IMG/VR virus record: IMGVR_UViG_3300036770_008714
Location: 1-58,393 of that record
Source of the DNA: a virus
Lineage: Duplodnaviria > Caudoviricetes
DNA: 58,393 bases
Direction: 5' to 3' (one strand)
The notes under the pieces are model-generated. The model saw only the letters and a list, made by a program, of their open reading frames with translations, had not been told where the DNA came from and did not search any database. This document shows positions 16,069 through 44,750 of the stretch, in pieces. How positions within the stretch are numbered: position 1 is the first letter of the stretch; the number at the start of each line of letters is the position of its first letter. The translations under genes were made by a program, and so were the position numbers.

Positions 16069-16247
16069 GAATGATTCCTGGCTCAACTTTACCAGTGCTG
16101 CGATCAATCTTGCGCCCCGCCACCCTTTGCGTTTACACTGGCGCTGTCCTTTCGGGGATGCGGGCTTGGCGGCCCGGAAAACACCCTGCGGCATAAAGCC
16201 GCTTCGACACCGCAGTCAGCGGCTTTTTTCATTCCTTGGCGCCCCAG

Positions 16248-16335
16248 TTTAGGCGGCCCAGGTGGGGAGCCGAAAGGCTCGCCGGTTTCTGCTCCGCAGG
16301 GTGCCCGGTCCGCCAACCCGCCTGGGCTGCCGCCT
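16248..16335 (+). ncRNA. C4-type antisense RNA (P1 c4 / P4 CI family)
   Basis: GGGGAGCCGAAAGGCTCGCCGG...CCGGTCCGCCAACCC core; loop CCGCCAA (16310-16) complementary to TTGGCGG at 16166-72 and 16338-44; CCGCAGGGTG complementary to CACCCTGCGG (16182-91). Confidence 0.8.
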
Positions 16336-16386
16336 TCTTGGCGGAAGGCAGCAGCAGTTCAACCGTCTGCACCCAAGGAGCCGACC

Positions 16387-17076
16387 ATGGCTGATTTCAA
16401 CTCCCACGCCGTTTTTGCATTCCACGATCACTCGGTCCGCGTCATCACGCGCGACGGTGAGCCTTGGTTTGTCGCCAAAGATGTGTGCGATGCCCTGTCC
16501 TATTCAAACTCGCGCGGCGCCCTCGCCGACCACTTGGACGCCGATGAAAAGGGTGTAGCCAACGCCGACACCCCTGGCGGGCAGCAGCAAATGCAGATCA
16601 TCAACGAGTCTGGCCTGTATGCCCTGGTGCTGCGCAGCCGCAAGCCCGAGGCCCGCAAGTTTGCCAAGTGGGTGACTGCGGAGGTGCTCCCTGCCATCCG
16701 GAAGACCGGCCGCTACGAAGCACCCGGCAAGGAAATGACCGTCAACGACATGGTGGATAAGATGACCCGCCTGCTGGGCACCGGCAACAGCTACCCGCCC
16801 ATCCTGTTCATGCCGCTTGTAAACGCCGTTATGCGCAAGCAGGGCTACACGTTCTTTCTGCCGCACCAGCAGGCCCAGGAGGTGACGGAACGACTGGAGC
16901 GCTTGAGTTTGGTGTTCCACCCACACAGCCAGCAGGCATCGGACGTTTTCGCCATCGGCCGGGCTCTGCGAGGGCTCAACCCCAAGACGGGCACCGCAGA
17001 CGCCAACTACCGCCAAGTCCTGCCCGCGTGCGGCAGCTCGGTGGCGCTCAAGCAGGCGGCGCTGCAGCTGGGGTAA
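16387..17076 (+). CDS. BRO-N family phage antirepressor
   Basis: GEPWFVAKDVCDAL...INESGLYALVLRSRKPEARKFAKWVTAEVLPAIRKTGRY. Confidence 0.92.
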   Translation: MADFNSHAVFAFHDHSVRVITRDGEPWFVAKDVCDALSYSNSRGALADHLDADEKGVANADTPGGQQQMQIINESGLYALVLRSRKPEARKFAKWVTAEVLPAIRKTGRYEAPGKEMTVNDMVDKMTRLLGTGNSYPPILFMPLVNAVMRKQGYTFFLPHQQAQEVTERLERLSLVFHPHSQQASDVFAIGRALRGLNPKTGTADANYRQVLPACGSSVALKQAALQLG

Positions 17077-17122: not shown

Positions 17123-18118
17123 ATGACGGTTTGCGTAGCTGCGCTTTGCGCCGATGGGAAAACTGTGGTCGGGGCTTCTGATCGGATGGTATCTACCGCC
17201 GACAACCAGATGCGGCGCTCAAAAGTCCATCATTTGACCGATCAAGTCGTTGCGATGATCTCGGGGGATGTGGCCCTACATACCGAACTGCTTGCAGAGC
17301 TGCGTCGAATGATTGCCGGGTCGGCCGACAAGCCAGAAGACCTTACCGTCAAAAATATCGCCGATTGCTACTCACTGGCATATGTCGAGGCCAGAAGGCG
17401 TCGCGCGGAAAAGAAGTATCTTCGCCCCTTGGGGCTTGATTCTTCGTCATTCGTCCAGTCACAGAGGTACTTGGAAACGAATCTGGCCACTGAAATTGCA
17501 CGCGAAATGTTGAACTTCAGCATGCCATCGTGCTCTGCACTATTTTTTGGTATCGATTCCAGCTATGGCTATCAACGCGCCCACATCTATCTGGTAGATG
17601 GCAGCTTCGTTGAGTGCCATAACGACACCGGGTTTTGTGCAATTGGAGTTGGCAGTTATCAGGCGATGGCGAGCCTAATGTTCAACGGGCACAGATCGCA
17701 GGCGAGCTTCGACGCTGGAATCTACATGGCCCTGGCCGCAAAAAAGCGTGCAGAAGTTGCCTCTGGGGTCGGCGAAGAAACCGACCTTGTTGTGGTCTCC
17801 GTTCATGACGGCGCCGTGGTCAGTTTGCACGACCATGTAGTTGACAAGATCGAATCGATTTACAACGACGCGGAGAACCAACACACTAGGGTGAACCTAG
17901 CTGCATCGGAGAAATGCCATGAATATCTTGAATCGTTCCGCACTACACAGGTCTCTATCGAATCTGAGCCACGGGTCGAACTTTCTGGCACCCCCCCTGC
18001 TGATGAGCCGCCTGACGGACGTATCCATGCAGCCGCAGGAGCGGACGGCGCCGGGAGTACTCCAACTTCCGGTGTACAACACCCTGCTGGCGGAGATAGA
18101 ACGCAAGAAAGCCCTTGA
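17123..18118 (+). CDS. Proteasome beta-subunit-like Ntn hydrolase
   Basis: After Met removal: Thr1, ASDR, Lys33, Gly47; AIGVG at the usual GSG site; strong AGGAGG SD. Confidence 0.75.
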   Translation: MTVCVAALCADGKTVVGASDRMVSTADNQMRRSKVHHLTDQVVAMISGDVALHTELLAELRRMIAGSADKPEDLTVKNIADCYSLAYVEARRRRAEKKYLRPLGLDSSSFVQSQRYLETNLATEIAREMLNFSMPSCSALFFGIDSSYGYQRAHIYLVDGSFVECHNDTGFCAIGVGSYQAMASLMFNGHRSQASFDAGIYMALAAKKRAEVASGVGEETDLVVVSVHDGAVVSLHDHVVDKIESIYNDAENQHTRVNLAASEKCHEYLESFRTTQVSIESEPRVELSGTPPADEPPDGRIHAAAGADGAGSTPTSGVQHPAGGDRTQESP

Positions 18119-27311: not shown

Positions 27312-29399
27312 TCAAACGATCACGCCATCGGCTTCTGGCGTCTCAATCCCGGCCTGAAACCCAATGTCAGGGCTGGCCGGTGTGGTTGGGTCTGTGTTCG
27401 AAGGGAATGGGTCAACAGGCGGCGCGGCCATGGCGGCTTCAGCCAGTTGCGGCACGATGGTCCCGCCGTTCTGATCCTTGAATCCCACGGATGCGGCCAA
27501 CTCGTCGGCCAGCGGCGCGGTCTGCGGGATGGTGGCCAGCACCTGGGCGGTCTGGGCGGCGCTGTAAAGCGTTTCCATGTCCGTGTTCGTGGCGTCGGAG
27601 TCGGCCTTGCGTGCCTGGGCCATGGTGAGCTGGGCGCGCGCTTCAGCTTCTGGGTCAGGCGGCGGGGCACCGGCTCCGGCCATCTGCTCCATGAGTTCGT
27701 GCTTGTCCGTCAGGTTGGAGTAGCGCAGCGCTGCCGTTGGTGGCAGCTGCACTCCAGCCTTCATCAGTTCGATGACCTGCTGGAACTGGCTGTTCTCAAA
27801 CGTCACCTGCATCGGCTGCTCGGTGATGACCACGTCGTATTCGCCCACCGTGACGTCGTACAGGTAAGAACCAGTTTCCGGGTCGAACTTGTTGATCTCC
27901 AGAATCTCTTCCTTCGGCTTGCCGGTCTTGGGGTCTGTCTCGGTGATGCGAAAGACGCGGTAGCTGTCGTAGTAGCGCTGGATCAGCTTCAGGATGCGGG
28001 CAGCCAATAGCTGGCGGGTGTATGCCAGGTTGTCCAATGGGACGGCCAACTGCTGCTGGCTTGCGAACTGCTTGGCCTGGATGGCTACGCCGCTGCTCTC
28101 GGGCCCTTGCTGGCCGCGCATTGCCTCGGGCACCGTCACGTCTTTGAGGGCCTTGGTCGCGCGGTCGATCAGCTTGTCAACGCCAGTCGGGATCTGGTTG
28201 GGCAGGATCTTCTCGGGTTTCGCGGTCCCCTTCTGGAACTCGATCACCAACCCTGTCTTGGCGCCCAATTCCTCAAGATCCTCGACGGTCATGTTTGTGA
28301 GGCTGTTTTCCTCCACGATCCAGCCGCTGTTGGCGCTGGTGTTGATGATGTGGATGTATTGGCTGACGGCCTTGTTCAGGGCCTCTTGTGGGCCAATGGC
28401 GTCATCCACCATGCCACGGGTCATGCCGCGCCGAAAGTAGGCGAAGTAAGGGACGACCGTGAAGTGGTCGTAGGGGCTGTAGCCTTCGTGCAGAGTGGTG
28501 CTGAATGTGCTGACCACCCACTTGATGCGTCGGCGCATGCGCTTGGCCTTCACCGCGCCCTTGTTCAGAGCATCGGCTACCGATTCCTCGGACATGTTGG
28601 CCATGATGATGATGTCCCCGCTCTCGGGATACACCAGGCAATCGGTCTTTTCGAACACCGCGATCTGGCGGTCGATGACGCGATAGCGCTGCATCCCGTC
28701 GCCGCCCATGGTGAAGGCGTCGTATAGGCCGACATTGCGGTCGCTGCCGAACTTGTTGCGGCGGACTTCGTCGTCCGTCTCTCCGTAGTCCTGGCCTTCG
28801 TCGCCGGATGCCGCCGCCTTGTCGCGCGCCTCCTTGCCCCACAGCTGCTCGATCTCGTCCAGCGTCAGCCAGCGTGAAACCGTGACATCACCCCACTTGT
28901 CTGGGTCGTAGCTCTTGGCGTCTGGGTCTGGGATGACGTCGCGCGGGTCCAGCCCAAAGATCGTGACATCGCCTTTCATGTTGCGGTCGAAGTCCATGCG
29001 GATGTCGTAGTAGCCGCGCTGCTCGATCAGGCCGTCGCTGTACACCTGCGTCTCCAGCCAGTGCAGCTTTGTGCTGTCGGCGATCTGCATAGCCACCTTG
29101 GACAAGATCGTTGCCGTGTTCAGGTCGCCTTGTTCACCGCGCGGTTTGAACGCGATGTCCATGCGGTTCTGGATCTGGTAGCCGATGGCGCTGTTCACGC
29201 TTGGCTTGACCTCGTTGAACTCGTAGAACGGCCGCCCCTGGGAACGCAGGATGTCCTTGTCCACATCGCTCCACTGCAGCCCGCCACCCATGTACATGCG
29301 CTGGCAGAGTTCCGCCTGCTCGGTGTACTCGATGTGCCCACGGTCCTTGCCGTACTGGTAGCGAGCCCAGTTTTCGCGCGCGCTTTGGTCGTTTGCCAT
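27312..29399 (-). CDS. Portal protein (P22-like)
   Basis: GLQWS...GRP...N.VKPSVNS..G, VIPDPDA, SGVAIQAKQ, DVTVGEYDVVI; between terminase and scaffold. Confidence 0.9.
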   Translation of the reverse strand: MANDQSARENWARYQYGKDRGHIEYTEQAELCQRMYMGGGLQWSDVDKDILRSQGRPFYEFNEVKPSVNSAIGYQIQNRMDIAFKPRGEQGDLNTATILSKVAMQIADSTKLHWLETQVYSDGLIEQRGYYDIRMDFDRNMKGDVTIFGLDPRDVIPDPDAKSYDPDKWGDVTVSRWLTLDEIEQLWGKEARDKAAASGDEGQDYGETDDEVRRNKFGSDRNVGLYDAFTMGGDGMQRYRVIDRQIAVFEKTDCLVYPESGDIIIMANMSEESVADALNKGAVKAKRMRRRIKWVVSTFSTTLHEGYSPYDHFTVVPYFAYFRRGMTRGMVDDAIGPQEALNKAVSQYIHIINTSANSGWIVEENSLTNMTVEDLEELGAKTGLVIEFQKGTAKPEKILPNQIPTGVDKLIDRATKALKDVTVPEAMRGQQGPESSGVAIQAKQFASQQQLAVPLDNLAYTRQLLAARILKLIQRYYDSYRVFRITETDPKTGKPKEEILEINKFDPETGSYLYDVTVGEYDVVITEQPMQVTFENSQFQQVIELMKAGVQLPPTAALRYSNLTDKHELMEQMAGAGAPPPDPEAEARAQLTMAQARKADSDATNTDMETLYSAAQTAQVLATIPQTAPLADELAASVGFKDQNGGTIVPQLAEAAMAAPPVDPFPSNTDPTTPASPDIGFQAGIETPEADGVIV

Positions 29400-37980: not shown

Positions 37981-38875
37981 TTGCAGCCTCCTTTTCAGCG
38001 CGGCGGGCGTCCGCCACTCGTTTTTCTTGCAGCCCTTTGGTCGTCCAGTTCGCAGGGCCTTCTGCGTTGCACGCCCACAGCCCATACCAGGACGACTTCA
38101 CGCAGTTCGCAAAGGTCTCAGGCCAGTCGATGTACTTTTTGGCCTTGCGGGCGCCGGTCGTGTGTTCTTCGCGGAATCGCAGCCAGGCGATCGCGGTCAT
38201 CTCATCGGTGATACCGGCGTCTGCGCAGTAGCGGCGAATGTGGTGGTCGTTCGGGATCGCCTTCACACCGAGCGCTTTGCAGGTGTCGAGGTAGGCGGCC
38301 AGGGTGACGGTTCGGGATTTCTGTTTTTCAGGAACGGGAGAGGTAGCGGGCTCGCCCGCGCTCTTCTCCTGCTCTTGGTCATGATCCTGTTCATGGTCAT
38401 GCTCTTGTTCTTGGCTTCCAAGGGGCTTTGAAGGGGCTTTTAAGGGGCTTTCCTTGGCTTCCTCAACAGGTAGATGAAACGCTACAGAATAGATAGCTGC
38501 AAACGCTGATTTCAAATGCGCTGGCCCAATGTTTGACCACTCACGTTCGACACCCTTCACACGGTTGTCACCGGGCTTCAGAGACTCGGCCACTTGATAT
38601 GCCGCCATGCGATGCACAAAGACGGTCTCCGAAGCCTCGTCGTAGGTGCAATACCCGGCTTCGATGAGGCTTTGAAGGGCCTTTGAAGCCCCTTCCATGC
38701 CCAGCCCGGTTTCGTGTGCCATGTACAAAACAGGGCAATGAAATACGCCGATCATGTTGGCGTGCGGGCAGGTCATCAGATACAGCGCCAGGACCTGAGC
38801 AGGGGCGTTCCCGCGCAGTGCCTTGCCTGTCTCCCCAATCCAGAACTTGGGGGAAACGACGCCGTAATCGCGCAT
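37967..38875 (-). CDS. Phage replication initiator (O-like)
   Basis: MRDYGVVSPKFW..., wHTH N-terminus, QEQEHDHEQ linker, directly upstream of dnaB. Confidence 0.8.
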   Translation of the reverse strand: MRDYGVVSPKFWIGETGKALRGNAPAQVLALYLMTCPHANMIGVFHCPVLYMAHETGLGMEGASKALQSLIEAGYCTYDEASETVFVHRMAAYQVAESLKPGDNRVKGVEREWSNIGPAHLKSAFAAIYSVAFHLPVEEAKESPLKAPSKPLGSQEQEHDHEQDHDQEQEKSAGEPATSPVPEKQKSRTVTLAAYLDTCKALGVKAIPNDHHIRRYCADAGITDEMTAIAWLRFREEHTTGARKAKKYIDWPETFANCVKSSWYGLWACNAEGPANWTTKGLQEKRVADARRAEKEAANEHA

Positions 38876-42816: not shown

Positions 42817-43101
42817 ATGACAACCAAACACAGCGCCGGACCATGGGAGCAGTTCATGGCGTCCTGCGCAAACGGCGACAAAACGCCAGCGATCAAAAGC
42901 ACTCGCTCGGGTGCTTGTGTGGGCTACCCGGCAGGCTCAACGGATGAAGAAATTGCCGCGAACTGGGCAATCCAAACCCTGGCCCCGCAAATGCTGGAGG
43001 CTTGCGAGTTCATGCTGAAGCACGCATTTGAACGGAAGTGGGAAGGCGACGAACAGGCCTACGGAATGTTGAGCCGCATCGTGCGGGCTGCAAACGCGTA
43101 A
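42817..43101 (+). CDS. Hypothetical phage protein (HxxGPW family)
   Basis: KHSAGPW...AAN...LAPQMLEAC. Confidence 0.7.
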   Translation: MTTKHSAGPWEQFMASCANGDKTPAIKSTRSGACVGYPAGSTDEEIAANWAIQTLAPQMLEACEFMLKHAFERKWEGDEQAYGMLSRIVRAANA

Positions 43102-43161
43102 CCCCAACCCATACCCCACCAGCGCCTCAGAGGCGCTTTGTTTTTAACTAGGAGATAAAGC

Positions 43162-43395
43162 ATGCAAAAAACCAGTTTTCTAATCGCCGCAATTGGCGCC
43201 AATCACGCAGTGCTTGCGCAGTGTTTCGCGAACACAGAATCTGATGCGTGCAAGGCTATTGCCGCCCTGTTCTTGGACGACAAGGGCGCTCAAGCAACCG
43301 AAATTGCGTGCATAGATACGGGCGCAATGCCTGGTTTGTGGATGCCTGCTGACCCGCAATATCTGCGAGGGCAAATTGCCAACGCGAAGCAATAG
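43162..43395 (+). CDS. Hypothetical protein
   Basis: AGGAG SD. Confidence 0.6.
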   Translation: MQKTSFLIAAIGANHAVLAQCFANTESDACKAIAALFLDDKGAQATEIACIDTGAMPGLWMPADPQYLRGQIANAKQ

Positions 43396-43470
43396 CCAGC
43401 CACCCACCCCCCACCCCACAGGCTATCCAGGGGTGATTGCTTTGATGGGCGGCGAAGGGTGATGCGTAGT

Positions 43471-43607
43471 GGGCCGCGCAGGTTGCACGGTTGCTGGCCG
43501 ACATGTTGCCCAGGGTTGCTCCTGGGCGGCTAAGACGGGTGGACTATTTGATCAACAGTCCGAGAAATCCAGCGAGGTTGGGGGTTCGATTCCCCTGCGG
43601 TCCACCA
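43471..43607 (+). ncRNA. tmRNA-like / alanine-identity tRNA-like RNA (137 nt)
   Basis: Acceptor GGGCCGC/GCGGTCC with G3.U70, A73, CCA; T-arm GGGGG-TTCGATT-CCCCT; helix TTGCTGG/CCAGCGA enclosing a 71-nt insert. Confidence 0.65.
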
Positions 43608-43664
43608 CACATCATCTTGCCCGCCCATCAAAGCATTCACCAATCAACGAACAGGAGAGAGAGT

Positions 43665-43910
43665 ATGAAAGAAGGTCAGAAAGTTTGGCTGGTCAAGTAC
43701 GCGCTTACTACGGGGATCACGGAAGAAGTCGTCCGGTCAGCAAATGGGGAATTCGCATATATGGAAAACCGAAGCTGGAATTCCTACAAGTCGGGACGCG
43801 ATGTTTTCACTGACTACGGCGATGCAGTAAAAGCAGCCGAGGCGCTGCGCCAAAAGAAGCTCGGCAGCCTGCGCAAGCAATGTATGAAGCTGGAGAAGCT
43901 CAAATTCTGA
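43665..43910 (+). CDS. Hypothetical phage protein
   Basis: VWLVKYALTTGI...KKLGSLRKQ..KLE; AGGAG SD. Confidence 0.75.
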   Translation: MKEGQKVWLVKYALTTGITEEVVRSANGEFAYMENRSWNSYKSGRDVFTDYGDAVKAAEALRQKKLGSLRKQCMKLEKLKF

Positions 43911-43996
43911 GGCGACTCCACAGGCTGCGGTATCGCGGCTGGTGCGGATGGAAGCTCCGACAACCTCCTGGGTGAAAGGCCCCAGGGCCACCATTG

Positions 43997-44057
43997 AAGC
44001 CGCGCGGCGGGACGCTAATAACTTAAGAGAGACTGGGTTCAACTCCCAGGCGGCTTC
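43997..44057 (+). ncRNA. tRNA-like module lacking an anticodon arm
   Basis: AAGCCGC/GCGGCTT stem plus CTGGG-TTCAACT-CCCAG T-arm. Confidence 0.45.
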
Positions 44058-44060
44058 AAT

Positions 44061-44130
44061 GGTGGTGAAGTGCGAGAGATGCATTCGGCTGCATAAGCCG
44101 TTGCAGCCCGTTCAACTCGGGCCACCACCA
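44061..44130 (+). tRNA. Degenerate tRNA or tRNA-like gene (ambiguous CAT or GCA loop)
   Basis: GGTGGTG/CACCACC acceptor, GCCCG-TTCAACT-CGGGC T-arm, short D-arm, CGGC-TGCATAA-GCCG arm lacking U33. Confidence 0.5.
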
Positions 44131-44177
44131 ACCCACCCTAGCCGCCCTCTGAGGCGGCTTTTTCATGGAGAAACAAC

Positions 44178-44453
44178 ATGCGCAATTTTTCATGGGGCAA
44201 GGTGCTAGAGCGCTTTGAGTACGACTTTGACGGCGAGCAAGTTGAGGTTGTGAAGTATTTGCCGACCAAGTTTATCGATGGCAGCGCCGTGCGGGGTGAA
44301 TGGGAAAGCGAGCCCATGTTTCACATTGCCGCAATTCATCAATCCTTTAGTTCTTTGGACGCGGCGCTTATCGCAAGCATCGCGAACAAGCGTCTTGGGC
44401 TCAACCAGTACGCACTTGTAGCTGGTGTCTGCAGGGCGCTTGGGATCGACTAA
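44178..44453 (+). CDS. Hypothetical protein
   Basis: GGAG SD; flanked by hairpin/T-tract spacers. Confidence 0.7.
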   Translation: MRNFSWGKVLERFEYDFDGEQVEVVKYLPTKFIDGSAVRGEWESEPMFHIAAIHQSFSSLDAALIASIANKRLGLNQYALVAGVCRALGID

Positions 44454-44492
44454 CACAGCCCGCTTAGTCGGGCTTTTTTCATGGAGGCAGCA

Positions 44493-44750
44493 ATGACAGA
44501 AGCAAATGCACCAAAGGACGCAGCGAAGCGTCTTGAACCCAAGCAGCGCCTGATGGAACGCATGCGTACAAGCATTGTTGACCAGGGCAGCTACGGCATC
44601 CGGCAAACAGCCATTTGGGAAAAGGCTTATGCCCGCGCAGCTCGTTTTGTGAAGCGCGAGTTGCCAACGCAGCGCACGCTGAAAAATCTCATTAGCCAGC
44701 TAGATGCAGCGCATGCGTGGAAGCACGAACCAGACCAGGAACCTTCATGA
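44493..44750 (+). CDS. Hypothetical protein
   Basis: GGAGG SD. Confidence 0.65.
   Translation: MTEANAPKDAAKRLEPKQRLMERMRTSIVDQGSYGIRQTAIWEKAYARAARFVKRELPTQRTLKNLISQLDAAHAWKHEPDQEPS

Follow-up and report, generated by a model that had tools for sequence, protein, structure and literature searches.

Results

Two folded RNA cassettes among the early genes of a temperate phage

The DNA analysed here (in the following: the window) comes from a prophage of an Acidovorax-type bacterium. It comprises 58,393 bp with a G+C content of 60.6% and is listed in IMG/VR as a complete provirus record. The features needed below are listed with their positions in the window.

Left edge of the window: fragment of an integrase gene
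About 1.5 to 31 kb: structural and lysis genes
About 38.7 to 50 kb, plus strand: block of small genes, mostly of unknown function
43400..43457, plus strand: 5' frame S1 of cassette A, with a C-rich tract, the motif CCACAGGCT and the 5' arm of the closing stem (43432-43457)
43453..43617, plus strand: cargo V1 of cassette A, which includes a tRNA-Ala-like module (43470-43607)
43616..43664, plus strand: 3' frame S2 of cassette A, which combines the 3' arm of the closing stem (43616-43641) with the ribosome-binding region of the gene that follows
43665..43910, plus strand: gene for an 81-aa protein (phrog_22725), exchangeable, between cassettes A and B
43915..43991, plus strand: frame domain S3 of cassette B, hairpins 43923-43940, 43945-43959 and 43967-43986, then CCAC; includes unit (a)
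43988..44065, plus strand: long stem P_b, a perfect 16-bp repeat with unit (b) as its tip
Tip of P_b: unit (b), a 3-bp hairpin, 17 unpaired A/U-rich bases and a T-arm (44033-44049)
44061..44130, plus strand: unit (c), closing stem GGTGGTG/CACCACC, central hairpin 44087-44108 and T-arm 44106-44122
44122..44170, plus strand: 3' frame S4 of cassette B, with a C-rich tail, a terminator (44140-44159) with T run and the ribosome-binding site of the next gene

The plus-strand block between about 38.7 and 50 kb is likely to represent the early region of the phage. Both RNA cassettes are located inside this block, and since they are flanked by phage genes on either side, they are not the scar of an attachment site. 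The early operon of this temperate phage carries two non-coding, strongly folded RNA cassettes on its coding strand. None of the four open frames that overlap the cassettes on either strand matched any PHROG family, and a fifth query, a TTG frame at 43491-43907, obtained its PHROG match through the part belonging to the 81-aa gene alone. A sigma-70-like promoter adjoining the cassettes was not found; terminators and ribosome-binding sites surround them on the plus strand.

ARAGORN identified no tRNA or tmRNA gene in the whole 58,393-bp window, and the only Rfam family in the window that reached its gathering score was a C4 antisense RNA (RF01695, 57.7 bits) at 16246-16337 on the plus strand. 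This RNA is located directly upstream of the gene for the anti-repressor Ant (16387-17073, plus strand), an order which corresponds to the P1/P7-type immunity arrangement. Beside the anti-repressor gene, a 331-aa protein is encoded (17123-18115, plus strand), the first 80 residues of which weakly match the proteasome-subunit family PF00227 (E 1e-5). Units of GGGGCTTT(G/T)AAG in inverted arrangement are repeated at 38410-38704, just upstream of the first early plus-strand gene and about 300 nt from a DnaB-like helicase gene on the opposite strand; this stretch may be an operator or origin region.

The stretches 43098-43160, 44122-44177 and 44456-44495 share a common punctuation composed of a C/A-rich tract, a GC hairpin terminator, TTTTTCATGGAG and a start codon. 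The TTTTTCATGGAG punctuation was also present in the loci L183, L184, L185, L189-L193, L196, L200 and L204, and its terminator part, the only widespread part of S4, recurs at 88-96% identity behind ordinary genes in further genomes of this bacterial family.

Long stems close both cassettes

Cassette A (43432-43641), which was absent from an earlier note on this DNA, is closed by a repeat of 26 nt (43432-43457 / 43616-43641) that is 88% complementary and encloses 158 nt, and its predicted fold has a z-score of -5.3. Cassette B had been described in that note as an array of three abutting tRNA-like units, (a), (b) and (c), around a perfect 16-bp inverted repeat. The repeat (43988-44003 / 44050-44065) is indeed present, and the 78-nt hairpin closed by it has a predicted free energy of -42.6 kcal/mol (z -7.6); for the whole cassette B element, we obtained z-scores of -4.4 on the plus strand and -4.6 on the minus strand. 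As likewise stated before, the repeat overlaps the CCACCA of unit (a) and the GGTGG of unit (c), the first five bases of unit (c) being common to P_b, and the respective stems are mutually exclusive. Forcing the stem of unit (c) yielded -112.7 kcal/mol compared to -118.5 kcal/mol for the free fold, which corresponds to a cost of 5.8 kcal/mol.

The frames are conserved and the cargo differs between relatives

For a comparison we used three full relative loci, i.e. L161 (Acidovorax facilis DSM 649), L205 and L206, a number of independent full-length relatives that is too small for covariation statistics, and added contigs of four public sequencing runs. Four frame segments were 94-100% identical between the window and these loci.

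S1 (43407-43452): 46/46 identical positions in L161, 46/46 in L205 and 45/46 in L206
S2 (43618-43664): 43/45 in L161, 44/46 in L205 and 45/46 in L206
S3 (43915-43991): 77/77 in L161 and in L205, 55/57 in L206
S4 (44124-44170): 45/48 in L161, 45/48 in L205 and 43/45 in L206

In L206, the first hairpin of S3 is shortened by a 9-nt deletion, and the sequence 5' of this hairpin also differs. The sequences located between the frame segments, V1, V2 and V3, were at or below the shuffle baseline of 0.60 with the exception of V1 in L206; 161 of 168 positions of V1 were identical in this relative, and its global identity was 0.54 in L161 and 0.57 in L205. Each cassette consists of a near-identical frame and of cargo that is exchanged between phages like a gene cassette. 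The frame of cassette A is the closing stem of 21-26 bp, and that of cassette B comprises the 77-nt 5' domain, the long stem, the second stem, the C-rich tail and the terminator.

The stems persist around the different cargos. The S1/S2 stem closes four different cargos, and in three cargo variants of cassette B the long stem departs from an identical CCAC/GTGG start, although the sequences are different: it has 16 bp in the window, forms a plain hairpin of 17 bp in L161 and L205, and consists of 8 + 6 bp around a large insert in L206. The stem of unit (c) is kept in L206, where it is lengthened to 9 bp, together with the CTGCA/TGCAG central hairpin. The overlap of mutually exclusive stems was found again in one relative, L206. 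In L161, the ribosome-binding part of S2 occurs as a second copy before another small gene. The 81-aa gene between the cassettes is replaced by other genes in L161, L205 and L206; a homologue of its product, 71% identical, is encoded in L004, and neither RNA cassette was matched near that homologue.

Unit (a) had been regarded as the first tRNA-like unit of the array. Its fold on its own was no better than that of shuffled sequences (z -0.12), and rather than a tRNA remnant it is a part of frame domain S3, which is 100% kept in two relatives. Of the proposed array, units (b) and (c) stand as modules of an acceptor and a T-arm and unit (a) does not, and the description as three decayed tRNAs in tandem is too simple. 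The T-arm consensus is absent at both corresponding positions, (b) and (c), of L206 and also from L161 and L205, so that tRNA-likeness is not needed by the frame and could be incidental; the comparison therefore does not bear out the earlier proposal of selection for tRNA mimicry in cassette B. Taken together, we assign (a) to the frame and (b) and (c) to the cargo; there is constraint on the stems, and only in this variant do (b) and (c) resemble tRNA.

Parts of the region 43400-44200 were present in 20 of the 22 listed public runs, which belong to 13 studies. In the four runs compared by contigs, S3 and S4 were covered in all four and S1 and S2 in X2, X3 and X16, with S3 showing the deepest contig cover; a single run contributed 61 contigs. 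Contig records with measured inserts had 135, 137 or 169 other letters between the frame segments, and other contigs showed, just 5' of S4, a different 4-bp hairpin with a 7-nt loop beside GGCCACCA. Contigs from RNA libraries, in which DNA can be present, were obtained twice each in X16 and X18.

The frame is rare among sequenced genomes

Searches for the frame were positive for 1 of 67 genomes at the genus level, 1 of 401 at the family level and 1 of 401 at the order level, and two further IMG/VR contigs carry it; Acidovorax facilis is the sole named genome with the same frame. A distant blastn search with 43300-44500 against cultured phages (INPHARED) gave no match, the downstream 91-aa protein as an anchor led to no related locus, a 20-mer of unit (b) had no match in viral contigs, and two frame patterns (a 21-mer and a 22-mer) had none in metagenome contigs. 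Several candidates were rejected. Two TTCAACT T-loops at a distance of 50-80 nt occurred at 76 loci of viral contigs, with a BLAST likeness confined to the size of the T-loop. An 18-mer matched genome contigs 17 times, which is about the calculated chance number, only the match in Acidovorax facilis being real. Weak matches of 30-36 nt to 43978-44015 in three genomes of the family were unlike the cassette; these read like ordinary coding DNA and were therefore taken as chance. Rfam searches with L161, L206 and L207 returned no match at E ≤ 1.

The cargo resembles tRNA parts that lack an anticodon arm

T-arm hairpins were defined by the consensus GTTCRANYC with a stem of at least 4 bp. The window contains three of them on the plus strand, all within 43579-44122 (544 nt), and one on the minus strand at 29140, compared to a mean of 0.475 per 58 kb on both strands in the shuffled window (n = 200). 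The third one in the region belongs to cassette A. In all three cases, the 7 nt located directly 3' of the T-arm pair perfectly with an upstream strand, and each module accordingly shows an acceptor of 7 bp adjoining a 5-bp T stem with a TTCRANY loop. An anticodon arm with a 5-bp stem, a 7-nt loop and U33 is present in none of them; its position is taken by 17 unpaired bases in (b), by an 8-nt loop in (c) and by about 93 nt of other hairpins in cassette A. Since no module has an anticodon arm, none of them decodes, and the earlier view that acceptor and T-arm geometry is kept in modules that do not decode is supported. In this phage, the cargo is built from tRNA parts, namely a tRNA-Ala-like module with CCA in cassette A and the modules (b) and (c) in cassette B.

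The tRNA-Ala-like module is the clearest tRNA-derived module of the region. It combines the acceptor GGGCCGC/GCGGTCC, including G3-U70, with a T-arm (43579-43597), the discriminator A73 and an encoded CCA, and it has about 93-102 nt of unrelated hairpins in place of the D and anticodon arms. Over the 35-36 nt at its 3' end, it shares 86% identity with the tRNA-Ala(CGC) genes of four host-family genomes, and the differences are paired in such a way that acceptor and T stems both stay intact, which may simply reflect another source tRNA. The 3' end of the host tmRNA is less similar to cassette A than tRNA-Ala(CGC). In the predicted fold, the ACCA of the module is base-paired within a long helix.

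Unit (b) has, as described earlier, a stem, here of 8 bp, and the T-arm CTGGG-TTCAACT-CCCAG (44033-44049) without an anticodon arm. It aligned with the full mascRNA model of Rfam at 26.9 bits (E 0.0055), which is below the gathering score of 42.5. Unit (c) had been called a full cloverleaf. Its 7-bp stem GGTGGTG/CACCACC (44061-67 / 44123-29), which adjoins the T-arm GCCCG-TTCAACT-CGGGC, was recovered, and the cloverleaf was not: it is 6.6 kcal/mol worse than the minimum free energy structure (-27.5 vs -34.1 kcal/mol), the pair probabilities are 0.25 for its T-arm and 0.08 for its D stem, the variable region is absent and the loop has 8 nt on a stem of 5-7 bp. A reading frame at 44081-44151 (plus strand), which runs through (c) into the terminator and ends in PTLAAL and a stop codon, bears a faint likeness to a tmRNA tag; we take it as a coincidence, and ARAGORN gives no support for such a tag.

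At E ≤ 10, Rfam listed six weak rows for the cassette region. The only one of the tRNA clan was tRNA-Sec on unit (b) with 15.5 bits (gathering score 47), beta_tmRNA matched 15 nt of a T-arm with 11.9 bits, and a tRNA-clan match to unit (c) was absent among the matches listed.

T-arm-bearing elements and exchanged cargo in related phages

We assembled a wider set of 80 IMG/VR loci with a nearby phrog_1376 gene and L004, i.e. 81 loci with 809,541 nt. In BLAST searches, these loci showed no likeness to either cassette. They contained 16 T-arm hairpins on the gene (plus) strand and 3 on the other strand, compared to about 6.6 expected on both strands if the shuffle rate of the window is applied to the 81 loci. 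ARAGORN called one tRNA among the 81 loci, an 81-nt tRNA-Ile (GAT) at 3505-3585 of L125, which is located about 140 nt downstream of the Proteo-phage-1 region of that locus. In 6 of 11 distinct plus-strand elements, an acceptor-like stem of at least 8 bp lies directly 3' of the T stem, and the middles comprise 65-123 nt; by our own reckoning, the corresponding middle of a real tRNA has 41-55 nt. The predicted folds of these elements combine an acceptor and a T-arm with an enlarged middle and, in many cases, a D-arm. Two elements, L081 3260-3385 and L108 459-561, are tRNA-shaped, with a 7-8-bp acceptor, a canonical-looking D-arm, a T-arm and a long hairpin that replaces the anticodon arm; ARAGORN called neither of them.

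In 4 of 10 scanned loci, the Rfam motif Proteo-phage-1 (52-72 bits) was located 45-96 nt upstream of the T-arm-bearing element. According to BLAST, Proteo-phage-1 and a conserved 3' extension with flanks occur in 15 of the 81 loci. A longer non-coding RNA is conserved there, and Proteo-phage-1 forms only its 5' end, as seen at L121 3505-3830, L094 2403-2740, L134 3626-3900, L149 3080-3380 and 11 further loci. The two stems of this longer RNA, ATCGGAG / CCCCGAT and GATGCAGTG / CACTGCATC, enclose unrelated cargo in different phages. The first cargo between the flanks is of at least eight unrelated kinds and contains a T-loop in 4 loci (by regular expression in 4 of 8 delimited cargos), and the second stem encloses more variable sequence, followed by a C-rich tail. 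The frame-plus-cargo logic of these loci is analogous to that of cassette B.

Both systems share the place in the early region, the conserved flanks, two cargo-bearing stems and the C-rich tail, and the short motif (T)CCACAG(G)CT is common to Proteo-phage-1 and the cassettes. However, the window frame has no BLAST likeness to Proteo-phage-1, the window gave no RF03044 match even at E ≤ 10 (gathering score 42 bits), and the cargo-swapping extension lies outside the 82-nt Rfam model. The term Proteo-phage-1 was found in none of the searchable paper texts, nor was a published function.

Discussion

Comparison with described RNAs

T4 RNA C is shaped like a tRNA. Together with RNA D, it belongs to the small stable RNAs of the phage tRNA region, whose roles are given as unknown in the parts of the literature consulted (PMC3014915, PMC9697503). 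The predicted RNAs described here resemble them in being phage-encoded and non-decoding and in sitting with or resembling tRNAs; the acceptor and T-arm are kept and the decoding arm is replaced here too. The T4 RNAs are encoded within clusters of tRNA genes in lytic phages, whereas our cassettes belong to a temperate phage without a tRNA gene, and their modules sit inside conserved long-stem frames in an early operon and are exchanged between relatives. mascRNA/menRNA (RF01684) likewise has an acceptor and a T-arm and no working anticodon arm, but is by its Rfam name a part of the MALAT1 and MEN-beta transcripts, so that the likeness is one of shape only. In a large computational survey, putative tRNA-like structures in phages are mentioned in general terms only, as far as its available text goes (PMC10690425), and in the literature searched we found no account of conserved frames of long stems that hold exchangeable tRNA-like cargo.

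YrlA RNAs are reported to be encoded beside the gene for Ro60 and bound by this protein, and the available sections of the respective work describe them as modular, with a stem formed by distant strands and a tRNA-like domain with a T-arm; YrlA-like RNAs are also reported from phages, and for the tRNA-like Y RNA of M. smegmatis, RNase P cleavage and the addition of CCA are described (Chen et al. 2014, PMC4201824). The stem from distant strands and the tRNA-like T-arm domain are common to YrlA and the cassettes.

Origin and role of the cassettes

We favour, with about even confidence, the explanation that the cassettes are non-decoding, tRNA-derived cargo RNAs, which are mounted on long stems within the early transcript and probably cut by RNase III and RNase P. 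The cassettes would be co-transcribed with the early genes, and RNase III would cut the long duplexes, i.e. P_b and also the S1/S2 stem, which adds up to about 45 bp when the leader-trailer helix is included. The acceptor/T-arm modules thereby freed could then enter RNase P cleavage and 3' trimming, which would yield small stable tRNA-like RNAs and segment the messenger as a side effect. The bacterial Y RNA described above provides a precedent for such processing. P_b would have to be cut or opened first, and only then could unit (c) fold.

A possible, if doubtful, alternative is that the elements act only in cis as punctuation by which the early polycistronic messenger is segmented and stabilised, providing RNase III and RNase P cut sites and end-protecting hairpins, with functionless cargo that drifts or recombines freely. 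The elements are indeed intergenic and co-oriented, S2 and S4 are fused to ribosome-binding sites, the cargo varies freely among phages, and the five or six differences between V1 of the window and V1 of L206 are a mixture of helix-improving and helix-breaking changes that are not clearly compensatory. However, 130-200 nt of stable cargo are not required by a cut site, and at most other gene junctions of the operon a simple terminator and a ribosome-binding site suffice. Moreover, many cargos of the relatives are devoid of a tRNA-like part (T-loop in 4 of 8 cargos, none in L161 and L205), so that recognition by RNase P cannot be the common requirement.

We consider it rather improbable that the modules are functionless remnants of captured or decaying tRNA genes, accumulated in recombination-prone intergenic linkers. 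This origin would agree with the resemblance of the tRNA-Ala-like 3' end to a host-family tRNA, with the poor cloverleaf of (c) and with unit (c) of L206, whose missing T-arm could be due to decay. Yet in all three modules the 5' acceptor strand is present and perfectly paired across inserts of 29-102 nt, and stable hairpins, not scattered mutations, have taken the place of the D and anticodon parts. The design of a stem, a T-arm and an enlarged middle recurs in at least six distinct elements of related phages, nearly all of them on the gene strand. Moreover, searches of the Acidovorax facilis genome with (b) and (c) gave nothing significant (best E 0.22), and no tRNA or tmRNA was present at the four matched loci that were scanned. 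The earlier note had named intact tRNA homologues, with random, non-compensatory decay and no expression in this phage, as the finding that would speak against mimicry; the homologues elsewhere are not intact tRNAs.

An element acting at the DNA level, in which the inverted repeats terminate a small mobile element or mark a site of recombination or replication, appears very improbable. Perfect or near-perfect inverted repeats around short variable interiors and exchange break-points exactly at the stem tops would be compatible with it, but the T-arm consensus, the likeness to tRNA-Ala, the plus-strand terminator and the strand bias of 16 to 3 T-arms in the relatives point to RNA. The frame segments are, in addition, single-copy in the window and confined to one locus of the 6.4-Mb Acidovorax facilis genome; a miniature inverted-repeat mobile element is rejected for this lack of dispersed copies.

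Membership in a described family, i.e. standard or two-piece tmRNA or YrlA, is largely refuted and hardly credible: cassette A does carry alanine identity elements (G3-U70, A73) and CCA, and the order of a T-like hairpin, a stem-loop and a D-like hairpin in cassette B recalls YrlA as portrayed in the accessible part of PMC4201824, but neither ARAGORN, which did find the tmRNA of the host, nor Rfam with its six weak rows detected a tmRNA here, cassette A differs from the host tmRNA 3' end, and a TROVE (PF05731) gene was found in neither the phage record nor the Acidovorax facilis genome, with control genomes positive as expected.

Returning to the cargo RNAs that we favour, their targets can be guessed at: once released, they might bind or occupy factors that read the top half of a tRNA, such as defence toxins directed at the acceptor end or the enzymes of tRNA processing and charging. 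Both phage tRNAs that escape tRNA-cutting defences and toxins of the acceptor end are in print, as far as the accessible text of these sources goes (PMC11555353, PMC11559606, PMC10435456), and a decoy role is conceivable on this basis. A bolder reading, which we regard as unlikely, is that the frames form a display platform for exchangeable RNA payloads, the tRNA top-half mimics among them sequestering host factors that recognise the acceptor end. Phages would then swap payloads by recombination in the near-identical arms of the stems, and the targets would be defence toxins that modify or extend the CCA end, AlaRS or processing enzymes, one of the mimics having alanine identity and CCA. The kept overlap between P_b and the stem of (c) would make the release of the second mimic depend on the first cut.

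Implications

Phage tRNA-like RNAs without an anticodon (T4 RNA C and D) are an old finding with no assigned role to date. Our analysis adds that temperate phages devoid of tRNA genes also have such modules, that the modules are mounted on conserved long-stem frames, and that these frames act as slots for RNA content, which the phages exchange much like accessory genes. The Rfam motif Proteo-phage-1 gains a wider context, and one carrier of the frame, Acidovorax facilis DSM 649, is a culture-collection strain. If the cargo is functional, it would constitute a class of exchangeable RNA payloads that take part in phage-host conflict or in the takeover of the translation apparatus, and if the frames are indeed display platforms, they would represent the RNA counterpart of the islands of accessory and counter-defence genes in phage early regions.
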